This document shows positions 2,039-61,807 of a stretch of 64,000 nt of DNA, piece by piece. Source of the DNA: a virus (lineage: Duplodnaviria > Heunggongvirae > Uroviricota > Caudoviricetes); IMG/VR virus record IMGVR_UViG_2854558644_000001; one strand, written 5' to 3'. The notes beneath the pieces were generated by a model, which was given only the letters and a program-made list of their open reading frames with translations, did no database searches and was not told the DNA's origin. The translations under genes and the position numbers were made by a program. How positions within the stretch are numbered: position 1 is the stretch's first letter; every line of letters begins with the position of its first letter.

Positions 2039-3223
2039 CTCGACTAGGCGAGTATAAACCGTGTCAAGCCTAGTGCGTTACCCACTCTTTGAGTGGGTAG
2101 GTCACAAAATCTACATCATCATTTTGTGATGGGTTCTCCATCATCAACCCTATTTTTGACTTACATTTTCGTCAAGATAGGGTTCTTTTTTACTCAACCC
2201 ATAAGTCAATAAAAATACATAACATTAAACGCAATACAAATAAAACCGTGATAAGCCGTAGAGGTACGACAGTTCTTCCCAAACGGTCTATTAAAGTCAC
2301 CCAAAATTTAAAGACGCAATGCATAAAGGTTACTGTATGTGTATTCTAGTGTGATTAACCTACACACGACATCAATACACTTACACAAAATACAACCTAG
2401 TTAGGAGGTGTGCGTTAATAAGTAGGTGACGATAGACTTCAGGTTTTGTGGACAAGTAGATGTTCTGCTCTAAACTATCAGCACAACACTACAAGAATAC
2501 ATATGATTGAACGGTCAAGGGTGTGGTTTGCGAGAACCATAAACGAGGAGATGTCGTATAGGGCTGACAAGGGTGTTACGGAGCACTCCCAAGTGGCTAG
2601 GTCAGCGAATATAAACTCTATATTCGGGAAAACTTGGTGAACAGCGCATGAAAAGTGGTGGCTGGTGGCAAGTACATAATACATAGTGTGTAAACACTAT
2701 CACATAGCATCTTGGTACAAATATAGTGAGTGATTGACACAATTCACTATCATAAAAATTAACAATGATTCGATAGCTCAGTATATAGTTAGCGACTGGC
2801 GTTTCGGTAAAACGATGAAAACTTATGCTTGGTTATTTGAAAAGTTGCTAGTGGAACAATACACAAGAATTAGTGGTAACACTAATGTTGAATGTATCTA
2901 TCTACATTCGTGTATGAGGTATGAGCAGTACAATCCCTGCCTATAAATCCTACTGTCTAGTGTAACTAGGTTGATAGTATATTCTGTAATCAGTTCGAGA
3001 ATAATGTCACTGATAAAACCGTATGTCTTGCAATCGGTTTGTATAAAACAGTGTAAGGTATTCGTAACAGTTGGAGCGAATTAAAATAATAAACTGTTGA
3101 CTGCATAAGGGTTAGTCACCTGATGATAAGTAATAAGTGAATATACCATTTAATGTTTGAGGTCTACCTAATAGGAAATAAGTGAATATATAACAGAGGA
3201 TGTGAGGGCTACTTATCTTATTT

Positions 3224-3297
3224 GTGCTTATATGTGGTGAATAATATAATGCTAACAACATTATACTTATCAGTAGGTTCGATTCCTACAAGCACAT
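3224..3297 (+). tRNA. tRNA-like element (degenerate D-arm), anticodon loop cuAACaa
   Basis: 74 nt: 7-bp acceptor TGTGCTT/AAGCACA, perfect T-arm GTAGG-TTCGATT-CCTAC, 5-7 bp anticodon stem TAATG/CATTA with loop CTAACAA; D-stem only 2-4 bp. Confidence 0.3.
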
Positions 3298-4760: not shown

Positions 4761-5693
4761 ATGTGCAAAATGTTTGAAGTAGTAACAGGAAGAAAGTCAA
4801 AGGGAAGTGTTGACAAGTTAGAAGGTCTTACAAAGGCATACACTGATATACATGAAGACATTGCAATTATTAGAATACCTGTTGAGTTAATGGAAGTTGA
4901 TTCACGGTATCAGACAGACGAAAGAACGGAAAGGGATTTAAAATATCTAACTAATAATTGGGATGAAAGAAAGCTCATGCCTTTACTTGGTGTACCACAT
5001 TGGGAAGAAGGCAAAGTGTATATAGTTGATGGTTATGGAAGATGGATTGCAAGTCAGATTGTAGATAAGGATAAATATAAGGATTTAAAGGTGCAACTAA
5101 TTTTAAATGCACCAACGGAAGATTCTGAAAGAGTTGCATTTGAAGCTGAATTATATGCATTTCAGGGTGTATCAGTTAGAAAGGTAACGCCAATTCAGAA
5201 GCATGGTGCAATGCTTGTATTACATGATCCAGCAACGGAAACACTTGAAAAAATGAAAAATATCTATGGCTTTGAGTATAGAGAAAATGCAGGTAATAGA
5301 GGAAGTGGAGTTCTTGGTTCATATACAGAAGCATTGAGTCTCTGTTCAATCGACAATGGAGCTTGTGCAGAATATGTATATGACATAATAAGAGATTCTG
5401 GATTTGATAGAAAACATAGCGGATATGTAAGTTATATAACTCGTGCATTAAGAGATATGTATAAGTTATATGCACAGGATAGAAGCGAAACAAAGAGTTT
5501 TTTATCAAATGAGTTTAGAAAAATTACACCAGAAAATTTAAAGGCAAATGCTTGTGCAAAATATCCTATTTTAGATTTTAGAACAGCGGTATCTCTTTAT
5601 GTTGAGGATATGATTGTAGAAGGACTTGGACTTGAACAGTCAAGAGTGATTGAAGGTACAAAGGTTATATTTATCAAGAAGAGAACAGCATAA
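4761..5693 (+). CDS. ParB-like nuclease (ParB N-terminal domain) protein
   Basis: ParB/Srx-type motif IVDGYGRWIASQ; ORF+SD. Confidence 0.6.
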   Translation: MCKMFEVVTGRKSKGSVDKLEGLTKAYTDIHEDIAIIRIPVELMEVDSRYQTDERTERDLKYLTNNWDERKLMPLLGVPHWEEGKVYIVDGYGRWIASQIVDKDKYKDLKVQLILNAPTEDSERVAFEAELYAFQGVSVRKVTPIQKHGAMLVLHDPATETLEKMKNIYGFEYRENAGNRGSGVLGSYTEALSLCSIDNGACAEYVYDIIRDSGFDRKHSGYVSYITRALRDMYKLYAQDRSETKSFLSNEFRKITPENLKANACAKYPILDFRTAVSLYVEDMIVEGLGLEQSRVIEGTKVIFIKKRTA

Positions 5694-20134: not shown

Positions 20135-20189
20135 TAGAATTAGAATAGTAATAGTGATACGTGAATAGTTAAATAGGAGGATTTGGATT

Positions 20190-20330
20190 ATGGGTACAGT
20201 TATAAGTATAATAATATTAATGTTTGTAATCGCAATATTTATAGATAATAAAAAAGAAGAAAAAAATAATGCAGAAAGAAATGCAGAAGAATTTATGAAA
20301 AAACATTTTGGTGAAGATTATAAAGAATAA
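20190..20330 (+). CDS. small single-TM membrane protein (46 aa)
   Basis: ORF+SD TAGGAGGA; hydrophobic core VISIIILMFVIAIF. Confidence 0.45.
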   Translation: MGTVISIIILMFVIAIFIDNKKEEKNNAERNAEEFMKKHFGEDYKE

Positions 20331-20347
20331 GAAAGGCGGTTAATTAT

Positions 20348-21109
20348 ATGAGTTTATTCGGATTATTTTATACAATATTTGGAATTGGTTGTAAAGGTGT
20401 CAATGATGTAAAAAATATTATAGAAGATAATGATCATAAGACGAGATATAGAAATAATGAAACCAACACTTATTTAGATCATAATATGAACAAAAGAGAC
20501 TTGTCTACCAATCATATTATGGTAACTGAGAGAGATTATAATGGTGATGTTTGGCTTAAAGATGCACAAACTGGTAGATATACTCAAAATATTACAGTTC
20601 GTAGAGTTGAACAAAAATATCAGGAAGAAAAAGCGAAAGCATTACGAGGGGAAAGTGATAGAACACATATTAAATACGGAGACGATGAGCATAGAAAAGA
20701 AGAATATCCAGGAATAAAATATAAAGATTTTAAAACGGGAAAATTATACGTTGAAAGATATATGATTTTTACTGAAGAACATTATAAAATGTTACATTTA
20801 TGGTCTGGCTATGGAATTTGTCAACAATCATTTTCCGTATTATTTGATCCTGAAACAAAGAAAATTGTTCGACTATCAGATGGAACAATTGAACAAATGC
20901 TAGGTCAAGGTGCTTTAATAGAAGATATAAATAAATTTTTCCATAAATATGTAAAAGAATATTATGAACATATGGCTGAACCATATAGTACATGGTATAA
21001 ACAAAAATTATATTACGAAACAACTTTACGCCCAATGGCTGACTCTTTAAAAGATAAATTTATAGAAGAAGGGGAAGCAAGAGTAAAATATAGACGAAGT
21101 GAAAAATAA
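20348..21109 (+). CDS. hypothetical protein
   Basis: 253-aa ORF+SD AAAGGCGG; very AT-rich islet. Confidence 0.55.
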   Translation: MSLFGLFYTIFGIGCKGVNDVKNIIEDNDHKTRYRNNETNTYLDHNMNKRDLSTNHIMVTERDYNGDVWLKDAQTGRYTQNITVRRVEQKYQEEKAKALRGESDRTHIKYGDDEHRKEEYPGIKYKDFKTGKLYVERYMIFTEEHYKMLHLWSGYGICQQSFSVLFDPETKKIVRLSDGTIEQMLGQGALIEDINKFFHKYVKEYYEHMAEPYSTWYKQKLYYETTLRPMADSLKDKFIEEGEARVKYRRSEK

Positions 21110-21122
21110 AGGAGATAAAATA

Positions 21123-21476
21123 ATGAAAGAATGGTATTATATTGCAAGTGATAAACCAGAGAAAAAAAATTATTTTGACAGCTATGATGATACGCAATTT
21201 GCTATTTTATGTATATTTAGATTTAAAGCGCCTATAAATGAAGTACCTGATTACGAGATTTATCATAATGGAAAATTATTTGAAACAGTTCCAGGTGATA
21301 TGTTGTTTAATATGTATATTGAAAATGGTGGTCATGTTTTTGAAGACTGCTTAAATAAGGAAACTGATAAAAAAGAAAATGAAGATGTAGAAGATTTATC
21401 TAAAACAATTGAAGACACTACAAATAGTTTGAAAAAATTATTAGATAGCATTGAAAAATTAAATAATATGCTATAA
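21123..21476 (+). CDS. hypothetical protein
   Basis: ORF+SD AAGGAGA. Confidence 0.5.
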   Translation: MKEWYYIASDKPEKKNYFDSYDDTQFAILCIFRFKAPINEVPDYEIYHNGKLFETVPGDMLFNMYIENGGHVFEDCLNKETDKKENEDVEDLSKTIEDTTNSLKKLLDSIEKLNNML

Positions 21477-21491
21477 AGGATGGTGATAAAA

Positions 21492-22502
21492 ATGAAAGGT
21501 AGATTAGAGCATTCATTACAAATTGAAAAAAATATAAAAGAAATATTATCTACATTACCACAATATGTAACTGAATATTATTATGAGTTCAAATCAGGAA
21601 GGCAACCAACAGCATGTAGAGAATATATAAGAAAAATAGCAAAATTTTTATATTTTATTGATTCGAGTGATATTAGACATATTAAAGCTACAGAAGTAAC
21701 AAAGTTTGATATTACTCGTTTTTTGGATTCAATAGAATATATAACAGATAACAATGGAAATAAAAAACAATCTTCATTATCTTATAGGAAGTGTTATCAT
21801 AGTGTACTAAAAAGTTTTTTTGATTTCTTAATAGAGAATGATTATATAACTGAAAATCCTATGAATAAAATAAAAAGGGTTCGTGGAGAAGATTTTGTTA
21901 ATAGAAAATTCTTAGACGAAGATGATTTAAAAGAAGTACTATTGGCTGTAGAATGTGGAGCAGGAAATAGAAGGTCAGTTGCTATGCAATATAAATGGAA
22001 ATCGAGAGACAGAGCAATTATGATGCTATTTATGCAAACTGGAATACGTGAAACAGCATTAAGCGAAATAAATATTGAAGATATCGACTTTGAGAATCAT
22101 TCTATTAAAAGTGTTATAGAGAAAGGACATAAAGAAAAAACATTTTCTATGAGTTCTCAATTAGAAAATGCAGTCTCAGAATGGATAAGTGATCGAAAAA
22201 GAATTATAGATAAAAATGAAGATGCATTATTCATTTCAAAATCAAAAACTCGTATGACACAAAGATCATTGTCGGATATTGTAATAAAATACACAAAGGA
22301 AGCTCTTGGATATTCGGTAACGCCCCATAAGTTAAGAGCATCATTTGCTAATATTATGTTGGAAAAGACAGATGAAAATATATATGTGGTTCAGCAGTTA
22401 TTAGGACATGCTAGAACAGAAACAACAAAAATATATTTGAAAAATAATTTAAATCAGTATAATGATATGGCTGCTGATATAATTGCTAAATCTATTTTTT
22501 AA
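21492..22502 (+). CDS. tyrosine recombinase / phage integrase family protein
   Basis: C-terminal HKLRASFA...LLGHARTETTKIYL (R-H-R-Y catalytic signature). Confidence 0.7.
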   Translation: MKGRLEHSLQIEKNIKEILSTLPQYVTEYYYEFKSGRQPTACREYIRKIAKFLYFIDSSDIRHIKATEVTKFDITRFLDSIEYITDNNGNKKQSSLSYRKCYHSVLKSFFDFLIENDYITENPMNKIKRVRGEDFVNRKFLDEDDLKEVLLAVECGAGNRRSVAMQYKWKSRDRAIMMLFMQTGIRETALSEINIEDIDFENHSIKSVIEKGHKEKTFSMSSQLENAVSEWISDRKRIIDKNEDALFISKSKTRMTQRSLSDIVIKYTKEALGYSVTPHKLRASFANIMLEKTDENIYVVQQLLGHARTETTKIYLKNNLNQYNDMAADIIAKSIF

Positions 22503-22516
22503 AGGAGAATAACATA

Positions 22517-23035
22517 ATGGAAATTAAAAGATATATTACGTTTAGAAATAAGAAAAATAATTTTCCAATTTTAAAAGAAAAAGAAAAAATACAATGGAAT
22601 TCAGATTTTTCAACATACGATAAAATTATTGATTTTTTAAATAAAACGTTTGAGATGGAATATTTAGAAGAGGAATATGTTTATATTATATCATTTAATT
22701 GTCAAATGATTCCGCAAGGAGTGTTTGAACTATCACATGGAACAGCAGATACTTCTATAATAAAAATGAGAGAGCTTGCAATATTTCTATTATTGTCTGG
22801 TGCGAATAAATTTATTGTAGCTCATAATCATCCAAATGGTTCAAAAGATGCAAGTGTAAATGATATTAATATCACAAGAAAAATTCAAGAAATGGCGAAT
22901 TTTATTGAAGTTGATTTTCTTCAACATTTTACAATAGGAAATGATGGTTATGATACTTGTATTGATAATGGAGAAGATGACGATATTTTTAAGAAAAATG
23001 GTGAAGAGGACGAAGACTATATGCCATTCAATTAA
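22517..23035 (+). CDS. RadC-like JAB/MPN domain protein
   Basis: HNHPNGSKDASVNDINITRKI JAMM-like motif typical of RadC/DUF2466. Confidence 0.7.
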   Translation: MEIKRYITFRNKKNNFPILKEKEKIQWNSDFSTYDKIIDFLNKTFEMEYLEEEYVYIISFNCQMIPQGVFELSHGTADTSIIKMRELAIFLLLSGANKFIVAHNHPNGSKDASVNDINITRKIQEMANFIEVDFLQHFTIGNDGYDTCIDNGEDDDIFKKNGEEDEDYMPFN

Positions 23036-23121
23036 ACGTAATGAAGTAATTGAGTTGTCTAATGATATCATGTAGAATAGAAACAAGTAAATTTAACTTT
23101 CTTTAGTTTGGAGGTAATGAT

Positions 23122-23412
23122 ATGACAAAAAGTCAAATAGAAAAATTCGCAGTAGGTTATTCTTCTTATCCTACAGACTGTGTGGAAGAAGTATTAAAAG
23201 TTACTAATTTCGATGAAGATGTGGCGAGAGAAATTTTAGATGACAAAGAGAAAACATTAGCAATTTGGCAGAATGGAACAATAATGATTGATGGAGTAAC
23301 ACTTTGTTGTGGATATGATTTCGCAGAAGATGCTTTTAGCAAAAAGATAAATATTGGTTATTGCCCGATTTGTGGAAGAAAAATTGTAATTAAGAAGCCA
23401 ATGAATGAATGA
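23122..23412 (+). CDS. zinc-ribbon protein
   Basis: C-terminal CPICGRK; ORF+SD TGGAGG. Confidence 0.5.
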   Translation: MTKSQIEKFAVGYSSYPTDCVEEVLKVTNFDEDVAREILDDKEKTLAIWQNGTIMIDGVTLCCGYDFAEDAFSKKINIGYCPICGRKIVIKKPMNE

Positions 23413-23442
23413 TTTACTCGGAAGATTGGAAGAGGTGATATA

Positions 23443-23631
23443 GTGAAAGAATTTAGAAATACTGACGAGATTACAAAAGAAGACCTTGAGAAAATGTATA
23501 ACGCAATCGTTAAATTTGATAATTATATTTCATCAGCAACAAGGAAGCCAACAGATGAAAACATTGGACTATATGAACATTGGATTGATTGCAGGTATGA
23601 TATAGAAAATTTAATTGTAACTGAAAGATAA
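23443..23631 (+). CDS. hypothetical protein (GTG start)
   Basis: ORF; SD AGAGGTGA 4 nt upstream of GTG. Confidence 0.45.
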   Translation: MKEFRNTDEITKEDLEKMYNAIVKFDNYISSATRKPTDENIGLYEHWIDCRYDIENLIVTER

Positions 23632-23643
23632 GAGGTGATACAT

Positions 23644-23811
23644 ATGTCAAAAACAATGAATAACCCCAATAAGGTAAAAGCAAAACTTATTGTAGAAGTT
23701 GAAGGAGAATTCTATGATGATGAGTCATCAGAAGAAACATTGAGATATTGTGTTGAACAGGATTTAGAAGATGCTGGATTAAATGTTATTGATGTGTCAG
23801 TAATGAAGTGA
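23644..23811 (+). CDS. small acidic protein (55 aa)
   Basis: ORF+SD GAGGTGATACAT. Confidence 0.45.
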   Translation: MSKTMNNPNKVKAKLIVEVEGEFYDDESSEETLRYCVEQDLEDAGLNVIDVSVMK

Positions 23812-23821
23812 GGTGTGATTG

Positions 23822-24028
23822 ATGGAAAGATATATGGAGTGTTCTAAATGTGGTAAGTCATTACTTGAAAATTCAATTATTGTTGTAAGAACTGGGTTTA
23901 CAGATAAATATTGTTCATATGGTTGTGCAGCAATTGATAGTGGACTTTTTAAAAATATAAAATTAACTGATGAAATTGTCCAAGAACACAAATCTTGTGA
24001 TGGAAGAGATTGGTTAATAGGAAATTGA
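23822..24028 (+). CDS. zinc-ribbon protein
   Basis: CSKCGK...CSYGC; SD GAGGTGTGA. Confidence 0.5.
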   Translation: MERYMECSKCGKSLLENSIIVVRTGFTDKYCSYGCAAIDSGLFKNIKLTDEIVQEHKSCDGRDWLIGN

Positions 24029-24038
24029 GGTGATATAA

Positions 24039-24326
24039 ATGTATGAAGAAGAAATAAATGCGGCATTGATATCCATACAACAATTTAAAATCGCATATAG
24101 TAATGAAAATGGAGTTATTGCAGTTGGTGATATTGAAGATTTAATGGCTAATATTGATACCATAGAAGAATGTGTAAGAAAACAAAAGAGATTTCCAACA
24201 AATAATAAAAGAGAATTTAGCTTATTTGGAAAATCAACAATTGTACATCAGTGCGGTATTTGTGGTAGTAATGTATATTCTACAAATACATATTGTCCTC
24301 AATGTGGGCAAAAATTTTGTATGTGA
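24039..24326 (+). CDS. zinc-ribbon protein
   Basis: CGICGS...CPQCGQK; ORF+SD GAGGTGATATAA. Confidence 0.5.
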   Translation: MYEEEINAALISIQQFKIAYSNENGVIAVGDIEDLMANIDTIEECVRKQKRFPTNNKREFSLFGKSTIVHQCGICGSNVYSTNTYCPQCGQKFCM

Positions 24327-24369
24327 AGTATTGGATTTGATTAATGAGCAGAAGAAACGAGGTGATATA

Positions 24370-24567
24370 ATGATAAATATGACACTAAAAGAGTTGATAG
24401 AATATGAAAGAGAATTGTGCAGCTTACAACAAGAATATGAGGGTAAACTGACTAAGATATATGGAGAGACTGATTCCTCAAGTGAAAAGAGGAGACTAAC
24501 AATTGTTTTGAATCTTATTATTGAAGAAAGACAGAAAGTAAATCGTCAAAAATATAAACCAGTGTAG
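24370..24567 (+). CDS. hypothetical protein
   Basis: ORF+SD GAGGTGATATA. Confidence 0.5.
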   Translation: MINMTLKELIEYERELCSLQQEYEGKLTKIYGETDSSSEKRRLTIVLNLIIEERQKVNRQKYKPV

Positions 24568-24606
24568 TAAATGACGATTTCTTGGTAAATAGAAGGAGAT
24601 GATTAA

Positions 24607-25407
24607 ATGGCGAGAAAGAAAGTAAATAAAGAATTAACCATAGAAGAACAGTTACAGAAAGAAAGAGAAAATGGATTAAGTTTTATTAAAGATGAAGTGT
24701 TACATCTGAATGAACCAACTTATAGATTTGAAGTAGGAGATAAGGTAAAATATGGTGCATTAAAAGACTGTACAGTAAAAGAAGTGTTATATGATGGAAA
24801 GGTATACGGATTACATTGTATTTCTACTGAAGAAAATTATGGGAATCCTTATGATAGAGAAGTATATAGAGTTGCTGAATGGACTAGCGTTAGACCGCTT
24901 ACTAATGGGGATTCAAGGTTTAGTAAAAATCAGGATGTAAAAATCAATTTTATCAATTCAATGATTGAGTCTCTTATCCATAAATATTATGCATTTGGAG
25001 TAGATATGAATCCTGAATATCAGAGAGGATATGTATGGGAGTTAGAAGATAAACAGTTGCTTATAGACAGTATTTTTAACAATATTGATATAGGTAAATT
25101 TGCTTTTATTCATTTGGATGATAAGAAATGGACTGAGACGGGTAATGGATATGAAATACTTGATGGTAAGCAGAGATTAAGCACAATTATTGATTTTTAC
25201 GAGAATAGATTTCCATATAACGGAGTTTATTACAATGACTTATCGGCTAAAGATAAGAATGTTTTCTTAAACCATCATATTGTACAAGGGGAAGTAAGAG
25301 AAGCAGATAGAAGGGCAGTATTAAAATATTTCTTAATGCTCAATAGAACTGGAAAGTCAATGGATCAGTCACACCTTGATAAAGTTGAGAAAATGTTAGA
25401 AGAATAA
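24607..25407 (+). CDS. DUF262 (ParB-like nuclease superfamily, GmrSD N-domain-like) protein
   Basis: LDGKQRLSTI matches DGQQR signature of DUF262. Confidence 0.55.
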   Translation: MARKKVNKELTIEEQLQKERENGLSFIKDEVLHLNEPTYRFEVGDKVKYGALKDCTVKEVLYDGKVYGLHCISTEENYGNPYDREVYRVAEWTSVRPLTNGDSRFSKNQDVKINFINSMIESLIHKYYAFGVDMNPEYQRGYVWELEDKQLLIDSIFNNIDIGKFAFIHLDDKKWTETGNGYEILDGKQRLSTIIDFYENRFPYNGVYYNDLSAKDKNVFLNHHIVQGEVREADRRAVLKYFLMLNRTGKSMDQSHLDKVEKMLEE

Positions 25408-25514
25408 CCCAAAGAAAAATTGCTTTCTTATTGAAAACAAATCAAATATAGAAACAAGTATTAGAAGCAGAAATACCTGCTTCTTTTTTATTGCGGAAAT
25501 GAGGTGAATAATTT

Positions 25515-25820
25515 TTGAGTAGATATAAGAATGGAAATCCAAAACATGCAAGCAGATTCATATGTATGAAATGTATGAATGAAAATATGTTAGCCAGTGG
25601 AATTCAGAGACAGAGACAAAGAGAACGAAAACATATTAAAGATTTGTATTGTTTGAAGTGCGGAGAGGTAACGAAGTGTATCGAAGTAAGATTTTGTGAT
25701 TCATATGAAGAAATTTTTGAGGCTGCAAAGATAAAAAGAGAGAATTATTACATAGACGAATATGAAAGTGAGGTTGATGAATATGTGTTACAAAATAGAA
25801 GTACAAAACAAAAATGCTGA
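25515..25820 (+). CDS. zinc-ribbon protein (TTG start)
   Basis: CMKCMNEN...CLKCGE; SD GAGGTGA 7 nt upstream of TTG. Confidence 0.45.
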   Translation: MSRYKNGNPKHASRFICMKCMNENMLASGIQRQRQRERKHIKDLYCLKCGEVTKCIEVRFCDSYEEIFEAAKIKRENYYIDEYESEVDEYVLQNRSTKQKC

Positions 25821-26763
25821 AAAGCTTAATAGGAAGTTGGATGAGTTAAATTTTCCTATATATATGAGAAAATATTTCACTGTTAAAATTGAAAGTAAAG
25901 CAGGTGCTTTAAATTATCTTGGAGTTATTGTAGATTTGCTCAATTGGTTTATTGAAGAGAAACTTATTGATAAAACAAATATTTCAGATATTGAGCCATC
26001 AGATTTTACTGACATTATGGCAGAAGATATCACGTTATATTTAAAGACTAAAGAACAGAATGGAATGTCACCTACGACATTAGAAACTAGAAAACATATA
26101 ATAAGTAGTTTTTGGGATTATATGAGTAGAGTGAAGGGAACTGAAATTAAAGATGGATTCTTTAAAGATGTAACTTATAAAGGGATTCCATCTGGAAACA
26201 AGTTAACTAAAAAACTTCCAACAGAAAAGCAACTTAATGATATGGAAGAAAAAATAATGTGGAAAAAGGATATTTCAGTAAGAAATAGAAATATTGCTAT
26301 TTTTCGAGTATTAAGAGGAACTGGAATAAGAGAATCTGAACTTGCTGGTTTGGATTTATCTAATTTGCATTTAGATGAAGAAATGCCTTATATTACTATT
26401 CTTGGTAAAGGTGTGTACAGAGAAATGCAAAATAGAATGGTATATCTTAGCGGATCTGCTTTAAAAGCTATAAGAGAGTGGTTAGAATACAGAAGCACAT
26501 TAAGTAACATTATTGATACAGAAGCTGTGTTTGTAAATAAAAATGGAACTCGTACAACAGAAAGAAATATCAAACAGATATTTGAGAATTATGGAAATGG
26601 TATAACACCACATATGATGCGTCATTATTATGCTAGTATAATGAACAGAAATGGAAATCTTGCATTTGTACAGCAGCAGTTAGGACATAGTAATGTAAAT
26701 ACAACAGTTAATAATTATGCAAATGGTGCAGTGGGGATGAAAGATGTGTTAAACAATATGTAA
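25777..26763 (+). CDS. tyrosine recombinase / phage integrase family protein
   Basis: HMMRHYYAS...LGHSNVNTTVNNY catalytic signature; overlaps upstream gene by ~40 nt. Confidence 0.7.
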   Translation: MNMCYKIEVQNKNAEKLNRKLDELNFPIYMRKYFTVKIESKAGALNYLGVIVDLLNWFIEEKLIDKTNISDIEPSDFTDIMAEDITLYLKTKEQNGMSPTTLETRKHIISSFWDYMSRVKGTEIKDGFFKDVTYKGIPSGNKLTKKLPTEKQLNDMEEKIMWKKDISVRNRNIAIFRVLRGTGIRESELAGLDLSNLHLDEEMPYITILGKGVYREMQNRMVYLSGSALKAIREWLEYRSTLSNIIDTEAVFVNKNGTRTTERNIKQIFENYGNGITPHMMRHYYASIMNRNGNLAFVQQQLGHSNVNTTVNNYANGAVGMKDVLNNM

Positions 26764-26777
26764 AGGATGATACAAAG

Positions 26778-26999
26778 TTATTTTGTATCGTCCTTAATAA
26801 ATAATTCGCATGGTGTACATTCTAATGCTTCACACAATTTATTAATTGTATCAAGTCTAATATTGATTGTTTCTCCATTATAGATTTTGCTTACATTATT
26901 TGCGGATATCCCTGTTTGTTTAGAAAGCCAATATTGTGTTTTACCTTTTGCATCTAAAAGATTTTTTACATTAAGCTTGTACATATAGCACCTCTTCAT
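26778..26999 (-). CDS. XRE-family helix-turn-helix transcriptional regulator
   Basis: LSKQTGISANNVSKIYNGE HTH; divergent from MazF-like gene. Confidence 0.7.
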   Translation of the reverse strand: MKRCYMYKLNVKNLLDAKGKTQYWLSKQTGISANNVSKIYNGETINIRLDTINKLCEALECTPCELFIKDDTK

Positions 27000-27052
27000 A
27001 TATTATTTATTTGTATTATAGTAAAAAATAATATATTAATCAATAATATATG

Positions 27053-27081
27053 TTGACATATATTATAATATGATGTATTAT
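27053..27081 (+). promoter_or_regulatory. sigma-70-type promoter for mazF-like gene
   Basis: TTGACA-17 nt-TATTAT with A/T-rich upstream. Confidence 0.5.
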
Positions 27082-27125
27082 ATAAAATATCAAAAGGGAC
27101 AAACAGAGAAAGGAGGGCTAACATA

Positions 27126-27476
27126 ATGGAAATTAAACGTGGTGAAATATATTTCGCTGATATAACTAAATACGATTCTAAAGGCTCAGAACAGAGTGGT
27201 AAAAGACCGGTACTGATATTGCAAAACAATATTGGCAATAAGTTTAGCCCTACCACTATAATTGCCATTATAACAACCAAGTCTAAAAGAGAATTGCCAA
27301 CACATGTAGAAATACATAAAGATGAGCTTAATGGACTAAAATATGATTCTGTTGTGGCATTAGAGCAGATTACAACGATTGATAAAGATCGGATTCAATT
27401 TAAAATTGGTGAATTATCTGCTGAAGATAGTTTAAAGGTTATGGAAGCGATGAAAATAAGTTTGGCTTTGATATAA
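27126..27476 (+). CDS. MazF/PemK-family endoribonuclease toxin-like protein
   Basis: EIKRGEIYFADI...SGKRPVLILQNN...TTIIAIITTK pattern of PemK/MazF. Confidence 0.7.
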   Translation: MEIKRGEIYFADITKYDSKGSEQSGKRPVLILQNNIGNKFSPTTIIAIITTKSKRELPTHVEIHKDELNGLKYDSVVALEQITTIDKDRIQFKIGELSAEDSLKVMEAMKISLALI

Positions 27477-27494
27477 GGGAGAGGAGAGAATATC

Positions 27495-27791
27495 ATGAAG
27501 ACAGAAACATATGATTATACCTCAATTGACGAAGCAATTGAAAGATTACAAAAGCTGAAAGCTGAAGGGAAAAATCCTAAGAATGTAGTAATACTTACAA
27601 TGGATTTTGATAATAATACTTCTTCAAAGAAAATTGCAACACCTGATGATGGGTGCTTATTAGTTAGAAAATCAAAAACAATAATTGTGAATGAGGATGA
27701 GTACATTCCTCATATGCAACTATTTAATGTCGAACAGGACATAAAAAATATTATTAAGAAGGGAATTATGCATGATATTTTGCTAAGATAA
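27495..27791 (+). CDS. hypothetical protein
   Basis: ORF+SD GGGAGAGGAG. Confidence 0.5.
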   Translation: MKTETYDYTSIDEAIERLQKLKAEGKNPKNVVILTMDFDNNTSSKKIATPDDGCLLVRKSKTIIVNEDEYIPHMQLFNVEQDIKNIIKKGIMHDILLR

Positions 27792-27818
27792 TTTCTCGAA
27801 TTTTTGTTCGAATTTATA

Positions 27819-27849
27819 TTGACACAAACACATGTTCGGAGTAATATAA
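27819..27849 (+). promoter_or_regulatory. sigma-70-type promoter
   Basis: TTGACA-17 nt-TAATAT (TATAAT with 19 nt). Confidence 0.5.
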
Positions 27850-27869
27850 TGGAAAAGAAAATAAAAAAT

Positions 27870-27905
27870 GCTTGACTAGCCAGCTACCAACTTTCTAGTC
27901 AAGCA
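27870..27905. repeat. 10-bp perfect inverted repeat GCTTGACTAG/CTAGTCAAGC (16-nt loop)
   Basis: seen directly; downstream of promoter in 300-nt intergenic. Confidence 0.6.
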
Positions 27906-28092
27906 ACATACAAAATCTATTTCTTGGGGGAAAAAGACTAGTACGCATTTAAATTATACATATCAATTATATAAAAATCAATGCATTCGCAGAATTTTTC
28001 CAAATTTTAACAATTTAATAGCATTTTAATTTTTCTTTGGTATACCCAAGGCTTATTAAAGTGCGTCAAAAATCAGAGAGGAGTGATGTTTT

Positions 28093-29615: not shown

Positions 29616-31052
29616 ATGACAATGGTGGGAAGAGACAAAGTTAAAAAAGATCAGATGATGTTAGGAACATTACTTAATCAGTTTAAAAGAGGTCAGATTA
29701 ATAAGAATCATCCTTTGCAGAGAAAGCCTGATCAATGGTCAGATGAGGCAAAGTCAGGACTTGCTGCCACTATAATCAAAGGAGAGGATATTGATTCCAT
29801 TAAAATATGTGAGCAGATTGTAAGCTCGACAGAGTTCATTCTTTGGCTTATTGATGGATTGCAGAGATTAACTGTTCTTGAATCATTTAAGAATAATGCT
29901 TTTGAAATTAAGAAGAGTCTTGAAATGCCAATTATGTACTATCAAGGAGTTGATGAGAATGGAAAAGTTGGAGTTATTAAATATGATCTTAGAGGTAAAA
30001 AATACAAAGATTTACCAGATGAATTAAAGGAAAAATTCGATAGTTATGCTGTTGATATAGTCAAACATCTTGATTGTACAGATGAAGAAATAGCCTATCA
30101 TATTGCAAGATATAACAGACAGACAAGTATGAATGTAAATCAGAAAAATATTTTGGTTGCTTGGAAGATAGCACCTGAGATAAAAAAACTCGTCAGCAAT
30201 CGTTTCTTTATGGATTGTGGAAATTATAATCCAAAAGAAGATACAAAGGAAGTATTTAACAGAATTGTGTGTGAATCTATTATGACTATGTTTCATCTTG
30301 ATAACTGGAAGAAATCAAAACAAATGAGTTTGTATCTTAATGAAAATGCAACGAAAGATGAATTTGAGGTATTTGAGAATGAACTCAATAGGTTGTATGA
30401 GATTACTGATCAAGACACAGTAGGTAAATTGTTTAATTCAAAAAATTCATTTATATGGTTCGCTGCTTTTCATACATTTACACAGTTTGGAATTGAAGAT
30501 ATTAAATTTATTGATTTTCTTGAAGAGTTTCAGAAAACATTACATAGCAAGACATTTGTAGAATATGAGAATAAGAGTTTCGATACTTATGATGATGGTA
30601 AGGGAACTAAAGATAAGAAAGTTGTTAAGGCAAAACTTAACATGCTCGAACAGCTTATGAAGGAATATTTACATATTACAGAAGAAACTAATTCAGAAAC
30701 AGAGAATAATATAAATGAGTCTGATACAAAGTCGTGTGAATCAGATTCAACGCTTGAATTTATTCAGAATAATGTTTCAAAAGATGTATCAAATGAAGAT
30801 ATTGAAGAATATCAGGATTTTATGGATTCATATGTAAACATTGATTCTGAATTATACAAGCAGTGTTCTATAGCATTAATGGCTTTAACTGCTTATGCTT
30901 ACAAATGCGATAGAGATGTTGAATTAGGAAAATGGATTGAAAATTGTCAGTCAAGAAAGTGGCAGAATCTCAGTCCTTCGCAGGAAGTCAATTTCAAATA
31001 TATGAAGAGAAGTTTTGATAATTTCGTCAATGCAAATGGAGGAGCTGCTTAA
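29616..31052 (+). CDS. DUF262 domain protein with long C-terminal extension
   Basis: LIDGLQRLTVL matches DGQQR motif of DUF262. Confidence 0.55.
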   Translation: MTMVGRDKVKKDQMMLGTLLNQFKRGQINKNHPLQRKPDQWSDEAKSGLAATIIKGEDIDSIKICEQIVSSTEFILWLIDGLQRLTVLESFKNNAFEIKKSLEMPIMYYQGVDENGKVGVIKYDLRGKKYKDLPDELKEKFDSYAVDIVKHLDCTDEEIAYHIARYNRQTSMNVNQKNILVAWKIAPEIKKLVSNRFFMDCGNYNPKEDTKEVFNRIVCESIMTMFHLDNWKKSKQMSLYLNENATKDEFEVFENELNRLYEITDQDTVGKLFNSKNSFIWFAAFHTFTQFGIEDIKFIDFLEEFQKTLHSKTFVEYENKSFDTYDDGKGTKDKKVVKAKLNMLEQLMKEYLHITEETNSETENNINESDTKSCESDSTLEFIQNNVSKDVSNEDIEEYQDFMDSYVNIDSELYKQCSIALMALTAYAYKCDRDVELGKWIENCQSRKWQNLSPSQEVNFKYMKRSFDNFVNANGGAA

Positions 31053-32488: not shown

Positions 32489-32561
32489 TGGGATGTGGTG
32501 AAGCGGTCAACACATCAGATTTTGATTCTGACATTCGTGGGTTCGAATCCCACCATCCTAG
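32489..32561 (+). tRNA. tRNA-Gln (anticodon UUG)
   Basis: cloverleaf: acceptor TGGGATG/CATCCTA, D-loop AAGCGGTCAA, anticodon stem TCAGA/TCTGA loop TTTTGAT, T-arm GTGGG-TTCGAAT-CCCAC. Confidence 0.85.
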
Positions 32562-32565
32562 CTGT

Positions 32566-32638
32566 GTGCCATTAGCTCAATAGGTAGAGCACTTGACTTT
32601 TAATCAAGATGTTGAGGGTTCAAGTCCCTTATGGCACA
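32566..32638 (+). tRNA. tRNA-Lys (anticodon UUU)
   Basis: acceptor GTGCCAT/ATGGCAC, D-arm GCTC-AATAGGTA-GAGC, anticodon stem CTTGA/TCAAG loop CTTTTAA, T-arm GAGGG-TTCAAGT-CCCTT. Confidence 0.9.
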
Positions 32639-32693
32639 TTAAATATTAAAGAAAGGAGAAATAATGGTTTTAGATTCAAATGGAGGTACTTAA

Positions 32694-51789: not shown

Positions 51790-53109
51790 ATGTATTGTGC
51801 TTATATCACAACATTAAAAGGATTAAGAAAACATAGTAACGCTGATAGATTACAGTGTGTAGAAGTATTTGGACAGAATGTAATTGTAGATTTGAGTTAT
51901 CAGGAAGGACAGAAAGTAGTCTTCTTCCCATCTGATGGTCAGTTGTCACTTGAATACGCAACAGATAATAACCTTGTTAGGAAGAAAGACGAGAATGGAA
52001 ACAATATTGGTGGCTACATGGATGCTGAAAAAAGAAACGTAACTGCCATTAGACTTAGAGGCGAGAAGTCAGAAGGTCTTGTGTTGCCAATTGAGACACT
52101 TGCTAAGTATACAGATATTTCAAAATTAAAAGATGGCGATCAGATTACAGTTCTTGGTGGTCATGAAATTTGTCAGAAATATATCCCAAGAGGAAAGAGT
52201 CGTTCAAAAAACAATGGAAACAATTCAAATAAGAAGAACAAGTTTCAGAAAGAGACAATATCATATCCATTTTTTGAAGAACATAAGGATACTGCACAGC
52301 TTGCATATAATATGTCAGCATTTAAGCCAGGAGATACGATTTATATTACTCGTAAGCTCCACGGAACATCAGCTCGTACTATGAAGACTGTCAAGGTTAC
52401 AAAGAAGAATAGTAAGCTGAGAAAGTTTTTACATATAAAGCCAAAGGTTATAAGAGAAGTTTCTGTTGTATCTGGTAGCAGAAGAGTTGTGTTAAAGGAT
52501 ATGACAAAGAATGATGGATATTATGCTGATAATGGATTTAGAAAGAAGTACCACGATTTATTAAAAGATAAGCTTCCTGAAGGGGCTGAAATTTTCTATG
52601 AAATTGTTGGTTATGTAAATGAAACAACACCTATTATGGGTTCTGTGTCTAATAAAGGTGTTAAAGAAAAGAAATTTACAAAGAAGTTTGGCGACACTAC
52701 AACATTCTCATATGGTTGTGAACCAGGTGAAAATGAGATGTATGTATATCGAATGACAATGACAACAGCAGATGGAACAGTTGTTGAAGTACCTTGGGAG
52801 ACTGTAGAAGTATGGTGTGACAAGTTAGGTGTTAAGCATGTACCTGATTTAGAGAAGTTTATCTATACTACACCAGAAGATTTGAAAGAAAGAGTAAATA
52901 AATATCTTGATGGTATGCCAGCAGATGAAATCGGCAAGACACATGTTGCCGAAGGTATAGTTGTTCGTATTGATAACAGAGCAACATTCACGGCTTATAA
53001 GGATAAGGTGTTTGAATTTAAGGTAATTGAGGGAATCGCCAAAGATACATCTGATGTACCTGATATGGAAGAAGCTGAAGAATTATTTGAGGAGACATTA
53101 AATGAATAA
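51790..53109 (+). CDS. ATP-dependent RNA ligase (Rnl family, KxHG motif I)
   Basis: YITRKLHGTSAR nucleotidyltransferase motif I like T4 Rnl2 KIHGTN; adjacent to polynucleotide kinase. Confidence 0.55.
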   Translation: MYCAYITTLKGLRKHSNADRLQCVEVFGQNVIVDLSYQEGQKVVFFPSDGQLSLEYATDNNLVRKKDENGNNIGGYMDAEKRNVTAIRLRGEKSEGLVLPIETLAKYTDISKLKDGDQITVLGGHEICQKYIPRGKSRSKNNGNNSNKKNKFQKETISYPFFEEHKDTAQLAYNMSAFKPGDTIYITRKLHGTSARTMKTVKVTKKNSKLRKFLHIKPKVIREVSVVSGSRRVVLKDMTKNDGYYADNGFRKKYHDLLKDKLPEGAEIFYEIVGYVNETTPIMGSVSNKGVKEKKFTKKFGDTTTFSYGCEPGENEMYVYRMTMTTADGTVVEVPWETVEVWCDKLGVKHVPDLEKFIYTTPEDLKERVNKYLDGMPADEIGKTHVAEGIVVRIDNRATFTAYKDKVFEFKVIEGIAKDTSDVPDMEEAEELFEETLNE

Positions 53110-53992
53110 ACCTACATTATGGGTTATGTGTGGTTTGAGTGGTAGTGGCAAATCAACCATTGCCACTCAGATTGCTAATGAAAATCCAAATACAATAATC
53201 GTATCATCAGATGCAATTCGTGAAGAATTAACTGGTAATTACGAAGACCAAGAACATAATGAAGAAGTGTTTAAAATTTTTCACAATAGAATCCGTAAGA
53301 ATTTGGAGAATAAAAAGAATGTAATTGCAGATGCAACTAATCTGACTATGAAATCTCGTAGAGCAATTATGATGAAAGTAAATGGTTTAAATGTTAGAAA
53401 AGTGTGTGTGATTATTCCAAAGCCATTTGAACAGTGTAAGATTGATAATAAAAATCGTGAGCATCCTGTTCCTAATGAAGTATTGGATAAACAGATTAGA
53501 AGATTTCAGATCCCATTTTACGAAGAAAAATTTGATGAGATTCAGATAAATGTATTTCATAAAGAGAATCGTTTAACTCTTGGAGAAATGTTTTCTATGA
53601 TGGAAGGGTTTGATCAGAAAAACCCTCATCATACTATGGATTTATATAATCACTCATTTCATACATATGAGTTATTTAGTAGTAAATGCTATCCAGCAAA
53701 ATATAATATAGCTGCATTATTACACGATTTTGGAAAAATGTATTGTCAAACATTTGATGAGAATGGCATAGCTCATTACTATGAACATCATGCAATCGGT
53801 TCTTATTTAATTTTAGAGAACCTATCAGGTATATTTTACGAAAATATTGGTGACATATGTTTTCTTATCAACTATCATATGATGCCTTTTAGTTGGGATA
53901 CTGATAAAGCAAAGCAGCGTTGGAAAGAAAGATTTGGAGAATATAAATATAAGATGCTTTTAGATTTTAACGAATGTGATAGAGCGAGGTAA
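53102..53992 (+). CDS. polynucleotide kinase (P-loop) fused to HD-domain phosphohydrolase
   Basis: Walker A GLSGSGKST; HD motifs HHTMDLYNH...LLHDFGK. Confidence 0.65.
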   Translation: MNKPTLWVMCGLSGSGKSTIATQIANENPNTIIVSSDAIREELTGNYEDQEHNEEVFKIFHNRIRKNLENKKNVIADATNLTMKSRRAIMMKVNGLNVRKVCVIIPKPFEQCKIDNKNREHPVPNEVLDKQIRRFQIPFYEEKFDEIQINVFHKENRLTLGEMFSMMEGFDQKNPHHTMDLYNHSFHTYELFSSKCYPAKYNIAALLHDFGKMYCQTFDENGIAHYYEHHAIGSYLILENLSGIFYENIGDICFLINYHMMPFSWDTDKAKQRWKERFGEYKYKMLLDFNECDRAR

Positions 53993-60715: not shown

Positions 60716-61807
60716 ATGAAAGACATTAAGATTGTAATAGGTGCTAACTTTGGAGATTGTGGAAAGGGATTAATGACAGATTATTTCTCACAGAAACCTA
60801 ATAGTATTGTTGTTTGTTCAAATGGTGGTGCTCAGAGAGGACATACCGTAACAACGCCTGATGGAATCAGACATGTCTTTCATCATTTTGGATCTGGAAC
60901 ATTCAATCATGCAAGTACATATTTATCTGAGGATTTTATTGTTAATCCAATTATCTTTAAGCAGGAATATGATGAATTGATGAAATTAGGATATATTACG
61001 AATGTTTATATCAATCAAAATTGTATGTTGACTACACCTTTTGATATGATGGCAAATCAGATTATAGAAGAAAATCGTGGAAAAAATAAACATGGTAGTT
61101 GTGGCTTGGGAATTTTTGAAACTATCAAAAGATATAAAGCTGGCATAACTGATGTAGATAATCATATCAGGGAATACTACTTAGAACAATTTGAAAGAGA
61201 GAATATTATATTAACAGATGAATGGTCAAAAATATTCCTTGATAATGGTATATTTGAACACTTTTTAGATGATTGGGATTTTATGAATAATCACTCATTG
61301 GCTATATCAGATAATTATTTCTTAAATCAATTTGACAATATTGTATTTGAAGCTGCACAAGGTTTATTGCTTGATCAGAACAACACAGAATATTTTCCAC
61401 ATCTAACACCGTCTAATACAGGTATTAAAAATCCCAAGAGAATAATTGAAAATGTTGAATGGAATGATGAGATAAATATTGAAACTTGTTATGTATCTCG
61501 TACTTATTTAACAAGACATGGTGCTGGTAAATTCCCATCTGAATGTAATAAGAGATTTATCAACGAATATATGTTTGATAAAACAAATGTGCCAAATCCA
61601 TTCCAGGATACATTGAGATATGGAACACTGGATTTAGGAGAATTATATAGTAGATGCTCTAATGATATAGGAAACTTTGGAGATAAAAAATCAATCACCA
61701 TTACACATTGTAATGAATATGATTGGGATAATGATAAATTGATTGAGTTATTCAAGGATTGGAATATTTATTACTCAGATGGTGAAACACATAATGATGT
61801 GAACTGA
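60716..61807 (+). CDS. adenylosuccinate synthetase family protein (PurA/PurZ-like, short form)
   Basis: N-terminal VIGANFGDCGKGLMTDYF (GDEGKGK-like P-loop) and NGGAQRGHTV...HVFHHFGSG (QGGHNAGHT...LIPSG-like); 363 aa. Confidence 0.7.
   Translation: MKDIKIVIGANFGDCGKGLMTDYFSQKPNSIVVCSNGGAQRGHTVTTPDGIRHVFHHFGSGTFNHASTYLSEDFIVNPIIFKQEYDELMKLGYITNVYINQNCMLTTPFDMMANQIIEENRGKNKHGSCGLGIFETIKRYKAGITDVDNHIREYYLEQFERENIILTDEWSKIFLDNGIFEHFLDDWDFMNNHSLAISDNYFLNQFDNIVFEAAQGLLLDQNNTEYFPHLTPSNTGIKNPKRIIENVEWNDEINIETCYVSRTYLTRHGAGKFPSECNKRFINEYMFDKTNVPNPFQDTLRYGTLDLGELYSRCSNDIGNFGDKKSITITHCNEYDWDNDKLIELFKDWNIYYSDGETHNDVN

Follow-up and report, generated by a model that had tools for sequence, protein, structure and literature searches.

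The stretch of viral DNA analyzed here, 64,000 nucleotides of IMG/VR record IMGVR_UViG_2854558644_000001 (Caudoviricetes; hereafter the window), is made up of small, densely packed genes that run on the plus strand across the window, at an overall guanine–cytosine (GC) content of ~31.7%. Its interval from 20.3 to 27.8 kb encodes two tyrosine recombinases, which we name Int1 and Int2, as well as a RadC-like protein with a JAB domain, four zinc-ribbon proteins, a DUF262 protein, an XRE-type regulator, and a MazF-type toxin (Table 1). All of these genes had been listed in a first-pass annotation, and Pfam searches together with the translations bear the list out. The same annotation took the interval for an extra-AT-rich moron or mobile insertion, possibly with excision machinery of its own, or else for a recombinase pair serving inversion or shuffling elsewhere in the genome. 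In comparison with related loci, the interval consists of three adjoining pieces rather than of one mobile island: an accessory cassette of p253, p125, Int1, and the RadC-like gene (~20.25–23.08 kb), a swap zone (23.1–25.5 kb), and a core module of p101, Int2, XRE, MazF, and p98. These lie in a small-gene early/regulatory region that is internal to a temperate phage of human-gut bacteria.

The comparison set comprises >200 related loci, IMG/VR and metagenome contigs among them, labelled L followed by a three-digit number. Against these loci, homology breaks inside the interval, at 23.08, 24.58, and 25.41/25.46 kb. The core module holds its syntenic position in essentially all 81 relatives with Int2; when the block is scored for presence or absence among relatives, variation of this kind is found for the cassette only and not for the segment at 25.5–27.8 kb. 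Base composition is uneven as well. With 29.0% GC, the flagged interval is the lowest among all 7.45-kb segments (z = -5.5), and the dip is carried by positions 20200–23080 (26.8%, the minimum of all 2.9-kb segments, z = -3.9). Positions 23081–27800 have 30.0% GC (z = -1.9), and the Int2-XRE-MazF block alone, with 29.6% (z = -1.2), is within background. The claim of extra AT-richness is thus correct for 20.2–23.1 kb but not for the remainder. GC content at third codon positions (GC3) is 15–16% in all four cassette genes, compared with 23.7 ± 4.9% for the genes of the window.

Table 1. Genes and other features at the left border and within the three pieces of the interval, with positions in the window.
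Feature	Position	Strand	Basis or remark
p46, small hydrophobic protein	20190..20330	+	Open reading frame; left cassette border zone here, breakpoints 20166–20326
p253, cassette gene 1	20348..21109	+	N-terminal hydrophobic anchor; no family
p125, cassette gene 2	21099..21476	+	117 amino acids from ATG at 21123; no family
Int1, Xer-like tyrosine recombinase	21480..22502 (likely start 21492)	+	Pfam Phage_integrase 2.6e-28
RadC-like JAB protein, last cassette gene	22517..23035	+	Pfam 4.6e-22; NCBIfam RadC
Six small genes (p96, p62, p58, p69, p95, p76)	23122..24567	+	Three with CxxC pairs; content varies among relatives
DUF262/GmrSD_N protein, 266 amino acids	24607..25407	+	Pfam 9.8e-19; PADLOC NsnA 1.1e-17
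Terminator-like hairpin closing the swap zone	25463..25484		Upstream of p101-Int2
p101, zinc-ribbon protein	25515..25820	+	End overlaps Int2 start; PHROG 1257, 4e-10
Int2, Xer-like tyrosine recombinase, 326 amino acids	25762..26763 (relatives start 25783)	+	Pfam Phage_integrase 3.4e-28
Hairpin between convergent Int2 and XRE	26762..26796		15-base-pair stem
XRE/Cro-CI-type helix-turn-helix protein, 73 amino acids	26778..26999	-	Pfam HTH_26 4.4e-17; only minus-strand gene of the region
Divergent promoter/operator	27000..27125		-35 TTGACA 27053–27058, -10 TATTAT 27076–27081, spacing 17
MazF/PemK-type toxin-like endoribonuclease	27126..27476	+	Pfam 9.8e-31, 106.6 bits against a cut-off of 23.1; PHROG 1936
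p98, putative MazF antitoxin	27495..27791	+	Co-variation with MazF

The borders of the accessory cassette emerge from the relatives. Close relatives (L024–L026) match the window up to ~20166 and resume at ~23077, with other small genes in between; carriers with different flanks align only from 20214–20326 to 22984–23082, and blastn against relatives places the right border at 23047–23098. The four genes always travel together (they are linked in L107–L120), and the same four recur in the same order in a lineage with an Int1 of 67% identity. p253 (GC3 15%) accompanies Int1 in L107–L120 and is 60% identical in the L122 lineage; p125 likewise co-occurs with Int1 and is 39% identical in that lineage. 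Neither p253 nor p125 has a match in Pfam, PHROGs, or PADLOC, and a single-sequence AlphaFold2 (AF2) model of p125, with a predicted local distance difference test score (pLDDT) of 68, was too poor for a fold search and was not used. The RadC-like protein scores 78.7 bits against a Pfam cut-off of 22.1, and its HxHx7Sx2D metal motif reads HNHPNGSKDASVND in the translation. It adjoins Int1 homologues down to 46% identity, there once in reversed order, and this linkage offers a lead on the role of RadC-like JAB proteins in mobile elements. The slot of the cassette is constant, between homologues of the window's ~16–19 kb and ~23.6–25.5 kb segments, and the cassette lies 3–7 GC points under its surroundings in five lineages. 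Taken together, these features describe what appears to be an optional, compositionally foreign module. IMG/VR scans returned 17 Int1 relatives against 137 Int2 relatives; both were found via exact peptide patterns of uneven sensitivity, so the minority share of the cassette is approximate.

In one metagenome contig (L007), Bacteroides-type genes, namely AhpC/AhpF, a hybrid two-component regulator, and a SusC-like N-terminus, are joined to phage sequence at ~20555 of the window (L007:8900–9200). We considered this join as an attachment-site (att) junction and rejected it: it falls inside both the SusC-like gene and p253, with only an 11-nucleotide microhomology, CTTAAAGATGC, and the phage sequence runs on well past the cassette after the join. 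It is likely a chimeric assembly.

In the swap zone, the run of small genes has an insertion point at 23101|23399. Four small proteins with a CxxC...CxxC arrangement (p96, p69, and p95 here and p101 in the core module) were read from the translations, and only one of them has a Pfam zinc-ribbon match, a weak one. The adjoining DUF262 slot is bounded by 24581 and 25406/25464 and is filled in relatives by a 657-amino-acid ResIII/DEAD helicase or by a pair of proteins of 173 and 104 amino acids. The hairpin at 25463..25484 is retained, with an altered loop, in relatives with other cassettes. The DUF262 protein shares its DUF262 (ParB-like) domain with the N-terminus of the GmrSD/DUF262-DUF1524 type IV restriction enzymes, but it has no counterpart of their DUF1524/HNH nuclease domain, and its GmrSD_N match covers residues 122–231 only. 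Also unlike GmrSD, it is phage-borne, and unrelated genes take its place in the slot in some relatives. It is not a full GmrSD enzyme. The protein matches the N-terminal part of PADLOC NsnA; a core 478-amino-acid protein (p478; 29616–31052, plus strand) matches NsnA positions 45–383 of 385 (2.6e-17), and a third ParB-like protein is encoded at 4761–5693.

An integron-like reading of the small-gene run fails because the intergenic spacers, of only 3–40 nucleotides, leave no room for integron-type sites. A 13-nucleotide direct repeat, ATAGAAACAAGTA, stands at two mosaic borders flanking the small-gene run (23077–23089 and 25448–25460), but it is not significant, being equaled in 10 of 100 shuffles, and it occurs in the closest relatives only. 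A motif taken from alternative cassettes, CAATATATAGTGG, is not enriched in the window.

The core module opens with p101, which is present in 80 of the 81 Int2 loci. It has no Pfam or NCBIfam match, and its single-sequence AF2 model (pLDDT 47) was unusable. Across unrelated XRE alleles (L027–L106), the hairpin that follows Int2 retains its outer arms, AAGGACGAT and ATCGTCCTT, and its inner positions change in a compensatory manner; in several alleles a T-run comes after it. The hairpin is probably a terminator shared by Int2 and XRE. We rejected it as a recombination core site, given its 15-base-pair stem and 4–5-nucleotide loop as opposed to a crossover region of 6–8 base pairs. In other lineages, a plus-strand helix-turn-helix gene begins right at the Int2 stop, in place of the hairpin. 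The L128 lineage carries an unrelated 332-amino-acid tyrosine recombinase in the Int2 position, in which R, K, HxxR, H, and Y motifs are recognizable by eye and which precedes homologues of XRE (minus strand), MazF, p98, p222, a sigma-like protein, and p478. As this unrelated enzyme occupies the same place, a recombinase at the Int2 position is a conserved trait of the phage group.

A label concerning ribosome-associated inhibitors appears twice around these proteins. Both recombinases match PDB entry 9i5v chain 14 (401 amino acids; E 4e-7 and 1e-4), which was deposited under the name 'Ribosome-associated translation inhibitor RaiA', and the family matched by p101, PHROG 1257, bears the label 'ribosome associated inhibitor A; zinc finger domain'. 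The recurring label may be annotation carry-over or a real link.

Downstream of Int2, identity among the XRE alleles spans 33–100%, and these alleles are distributed independently of those of Int2 and MazF. The promoter between XRE and MazF, TTGACA-17-TATTAT, is the best match of the region (11/12), and a 10-4-10 palindrome, ATAATATATG-TTGA-CATATATTAT, at 27043–27066 overlaps its -35 element. Most likely, XRE would repress the MazF-side promoter via this palindrome. Of the 81 loci, 77 have a MazF homologue after Int2. The next gene, p98, has no family match in Pfam, PADLOC, PHROGs, or NCBIfam; it is found in 32 of the 33 loci whose MazF is ≥80% identical and in none of the 43 with a MazF <60% identical. 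Because its presence tracks MazF identity in this manner, MazF and p98 are likely a cognate pair, with p98 as the antitoxin. As in MazEF/PemIK systems, a MazF/PemK-domain toxin is tightly co-inherited with one small neighbor. In those systems, however, the antitoxin lies upstream in the operon, whereas p98 lies downstream and matches no antitoxin family, and the gene upstream of MazF here is the divergent XRE, with alleles independent of MazF. By these features, MazF-p98 is not a canonical MazEF operon. The 300-base-pair non-coding stretch that follows (27792–28092) has a plus-strand promoter match (TTGACA-17-TAATAT, 27819–27847) and a minus-strand one (27981–27953) facing a hairpin with a 10-base-pair stem, GCTTGACTAG...CTAGTCAAGC (27870–27904), which is trailed by a T-run on the minus strand. 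The arrangement resembles a small unit for an antisense RNA, placed ahead of p222.

Both recombinases are clear members of the tyrosine recombinase family, with 99.4 bits for Int1 and 99.0 bits for Int2 against a PF00589 cut-off of 27.1, and they are 30% identical to each other over the catalytic domain. Their best PDB matches are XerA, XerC-like, XerH, and XerD structures, and in the alignment of Int2 to XerD and XerA the catalytic motifs are in register. Xer models are the best matches in NCBIfam as well, at scores far below their equivalog cut-offs (Int1: XerA 149.5 vs 220, XerC 137.2 vs 335; Int2: XerC 119.1 vs 335, XerS 108.8 vs 267). In the Int1 family, R190, K215, H283, R286, H310, and Y319 are each present in ≥98% of 114 homologues of 30–95% identity: R190, R286, and H310 in all, H283 in 112, and Y319 in 113. 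In Int2, R183, K209, H277, R280, and H302 are found in 59/59 distinct orthologues (54–100% identity) and Y312 in 58/59. Because these active sites are so strongly constrained, we infer that Int1 and Int2 are both catalytically active. Like the Xer family (XerC/XerD, XerS, XerH, XerA) and Cre, they are two-domain proteins of ~330 amino acids with a full catalytic set and no arm-binding domain; unlike in those systems, a dif- or lox-like site was not found near either gene. In a check for the dif 11-6-11 architecture near the genes, the inverted repeats with short spacers corresponded to a hairpin with a 5-nucleotide loop and to the operator palindromes. Cre of phage P1 is a precedent for a phage recombinase that is distinct from the integrase, its tasks being to close the genome and to resolve dimers. 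A further difference from Cre is that the phage studied here is integrated and not a plasmid prophage.

Int1 and Int2 match PF00589 only, with no N-terminal arm-binding domain and no adjacent excisionase, and in every context seen they are flanked on both sides by phage genes; neither stands at a prophage end. We followed the phage genome beyond the window in relatives. Upstream, on the minus strand, lie genes for a DUF3825 protein, dCMP deaminase, and a YonO-like 'RdRP' polymerase. To the right come, in order, AAA_24, a DnaB-like helicase, a DHH/RecJ-like nuclease, and a 1109-amino-acid DnaE-type polymerase, followed by an ERCC4 nuclease, an NAD-dependent ligase, and ThyX, and then by NrdD/NrdG and dUTPase. 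The walk ends at a contig end common to many relatives, with a 67-amino-acid Tn916-type excisionase (Xis; PF09035, 3.7e-23), an adjoining 416-amino-acid integrase with the Tn916 arm-binding domain (PF02920), and then ~470 base pairs of non-coding DNA. This prophage end lies ~65 kb to the right of the flagged interval, and one IMG/VR contig, 3300029544_000210, contains the terminal xis (L206) as well as an orthologue of Int2 (L094). Most likely, then, the phage integrates via this separate, terminal Tn916-type Xis/Int pair, and neither Int1 nor Int2 is its integrase. The excision machinery that had been attributed to the interval is without basis, because relatives carry the Tn916-type Xis/Int at the right end of the prophage. 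Treating the 'integrases' at 21–27 kb as something other than the integrase also avoids misannotated prophage borders and lifestyles.

Exact protein matches place the window at ~149.9–213.9 kb of contig QSFM01000002.1 (365,782 bp; NCBI assembly GCA_003466985.1). Its phage family abounds in metagenomes of the human gut. Many of its IMG/VR relatives are contigs of ~145–160 kb, and relatives are also found on contigs of 0.2–3 Mb; the ParB-like protein of the phage is indexed in 916 data blocks, including contigs of 0.2–0.4 Mb and one of 3.09 Mb. A near-identity DNA search returned no match among cultured phages, protein searches gave distant or unannotated records only, and an Int2 scan of genome contigs yielded a single match, 52% identical, on a 2.8-kb contig of a metagenome-assembled genome. 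In most full-length IMG/VR contigs, Int2 lies ~88–92 kb from one end. In a few others (L065, L084, L086, and L096; 146–150 kb), it is 12–19 kb from an end, which suggests that some assemblies are circular permutations of the free phage genome and not prophages.

The gene order is collinear with annotated maps of the Bacillus phage SPbeta, and tblastn detects homologues of SPbeta YorJ, YorK, YorL, YonO, YosS, and MtbP. SPbeta, a large temperate phage of Firmicutes, has, in the same order, a minus-strand YonO-type RNA polymerase, a long plus-strand run of small early genes, a replication block of Sak4/AAA_24-x-DnaB-x-RecJ-DnaE (yorG-yorL and their equivalents here), and then ribonucleotide reductase, dUTPase, a directionality factor, and att. 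It also shares the presence of two integrase-family genes within the prophage, distant from att. It differs in using the serine integrase SprA with SprB, whereas a Tn916-type tyrosine enzyme with Xis is terminal here; in contrast to SPbeta, no AimR/AimP-like genes were recognized in the window. Given this collinearity and the terminal Xis/Int of the relatives, the phage can be described as a distant, gut-borne SPbeta-like temperate phage of ~150–160 kb with its own integration module. A literature search on gut SPbeta-like phages, and on RadC with tyrosine recombinases in phages, returned nothing specific.

The likeness to SPbeta extends to the surroundings of Int2. In SPbeta, the sro operon yopM-yopR holds the integrase-like YopP, yopQ, and YopR (325 amino acids, plus strand); downstream of yopR come a terminator, a palindrome, yopS (a 74-amino-acid XRE, minus strand), and plus-strand small genes. 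Here, Int2 (326 amino acids), a hairpin, a minus-strand XRE (73 amino acids), and a divergent promoter bearing a palindrome follow one another, nearly gene for gene, the MazF-p98 pair after XRE being the difference. YopR (MrpR/SroF) is the integrase-fold master repressor of SPbeta (PMC10516654; bioRxiv 10.1101/2025.11.27.690993), and MrpR retains 3/7 catalytic residues (PMC10516654). The region is, in these terms, a variant of a known arrangement, with internal integrase-family genes in an SPbeta-like control region.

We favor, with a rough probability of 0.6, a composite reading in which three units adjoin in the early region and Int1 and Int2 would be competent Xer-type recombinases other than the integrase of the phage. 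The idea that the whole of 20.3–27.8 kb is a single moron or mobile insertion, equipped to excise itself, is hardly credible, even though the interval has the lowest GC content for its size and unites two recombinases with a toxin module: its right two-thirds are syntenic in essentially all relatives, the GC deficit is limited to 20.2–23.1 kb, the breakpoints are internal, and flanking repeats were not found. What survives of the insertion idea is the left 2.9 kb, optional and foreign in composition, but not Int2-XRE-MazF, which essentially all 81 relatives possess. A narrower proposal makes the cassette alone a small self-mobile integrative element, which Int1 would insert and excise at a specific site in this phage family. 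Its presence/absence polymorphism with sharp borders, its GC content persistently lower than the flanks in five lineages, its 83–89% identity in backgrounds whose flanks hardly align, and the conserved catalytic residues of Int1 all accord with such an element. We nevertheless consider it improbable, since direct and inverted repeats at the borders do not exceed chance (the border zones share no 9-mer or longer, and they have fewer 8-mers in common than the average shuffle), non-carriers have other genes at this place and no empty site, only one syntenic slot is used, the borders vary with the lineage (left 20214/20251/20326, right 22984/23047/23081), and no circular or excised form was seen. 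Gain and loss of the cassette by homologous recombination between related phages at a hot spot, not by self-movement, is most likely. Very unlikely, too, is the suggestion that Int1 and Int2 act as a pair to invert or shuffle other parts of the phage, with tail-fibre genes or the specificity cassettes of methyltransferases as possible targets. The two enzymes are simple and Xer-like, with weak matches to tyrosine-type DNA invertase models (1e-10 to 2e-9), and the methyltransferase genes do vary among relatives; this variation, however, is whole-gene replacement. Inverted or direct repeats of note are absent from the 64-kb window and from the methyltransferase area at 36–46 kb, the window does not extend to the structural genes, and the orientation of 25 local genes is constant among their homologues in ~94 loci, with no rearranged variant. 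Because most Int2 genomes lack Int1, the pairing is, moreover, not obligate.

Under one explanation of the role of Int2, Int2, perhaps together with XRE, would be a SroF/MrpR-type lysogeny repressor with an integrase fold, binding DNA without recombining it. The local layout is that of SPbeta yopR-yopS, the genomes are collinear, the position is kept even where the recombinase has been replaced (L128), and SroF/MrpR provides the precedent of an integrase-fold repressor (PMC10516654; 10.1101/2025.11.27.690993). Still, we regard a repressor-only role as unlikely. The catalytic set, degenerate in MrpR with 3/7 residues left (PMC10516654), is full in Int1 and, in Int2, intact and conserved among orthologues; the L128 replacement also has the catalytic motifs, and no long dispersed operator motif was found in the 64-kb window by exact k-mers or intergenic blastn, searches that degenerate motifs could escape. 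As MrpR has lost 4/7 catalytic residues and Int2 none, and as BLASTP similarity to YopR/YopP is absent, an active recombinase at this regulatory hub is favored. Our best guess is that Int2 may cut and join phage DNA there, for instance to resolve circular multimers or to close the genome as Cre does, and it may additionally regulate through DNA binding. Such a Cre-like task is the most ordinary candidate, with the repressor-only role as its main rival. Rather unlikely is a bolder version of the favored enzyme: an active recombinase in the SroF/MrpR niche that would be a dual enzyme and regulator, or a living intermediate between recombinase and repressor, with the linked and widely conserved Int1-RadC pair as a second recombinase system traded by large phages. 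An intact active site at the SPbeta repressor position would offer a concrete system for the origin of integrase-fold repressors; this site at the SroF-equivalent position and the evolutionarily persistent Int1-RadC linkage would interest specialists.

Several observations weigh against the composite reading. The closest scorable relatives carry the cassette in 5/8 cases. The terminal Xis/Int pair is known from close relatives (95–96% identity in the DHH gene), whose contigs, unlike that of the window, were followed to the right end. No lox- or dif-like pair lies near either recombinase gene, and no dispersed repeated motif occurs in the 64-kb window; with no rearranged variant among the relatives, recombinase activity is read solely from the conserved residues. 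BLASTP of Int1 and Int2 against YopP and YopR gives no match with E <0.5, so the SPbeta parallel is positional only.

Some further features of the window deserve mention. Its first 1600 nucleotides (1–1600) are nearly free of open reading frames, with 27% GC and a negative AT skew in the first kb, and divide the upstream minus-strand genes from the plus-strand early genes; an origin or the early promoters may be located there, in a region that would correspond to the yonO/yonR divergence of SPbeta. Directly after the open reading frame at 1601–2038, the plus strand has a Pistol self-cleaving ribozyme at 2038–2106 (Rfam RF02679, 60 bits, E 2e-8). Positions 60716–61807 (plus strand) encode a homologue of adenylosuccinate synthetase, with matches to Pfam Adenylsucc_synt and to PHROG 1211 ('2-aminooxy adenylosuccinate synthetase', 1.3e-65); in some phages, PurZ-type members of this family serve to make DNA with 2-aminoadenine. 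An RNA-repair set of a T4-type RNA ligase, a polynucleotide kinase/AAA_33 protein, and a Thg1-like protein is found at 51790–53992 and at L136:10691–11545. Finally, the window encodes a tRNA-Val at 3223–3297 and tRNA-Gln/Lys at 32489–32639.

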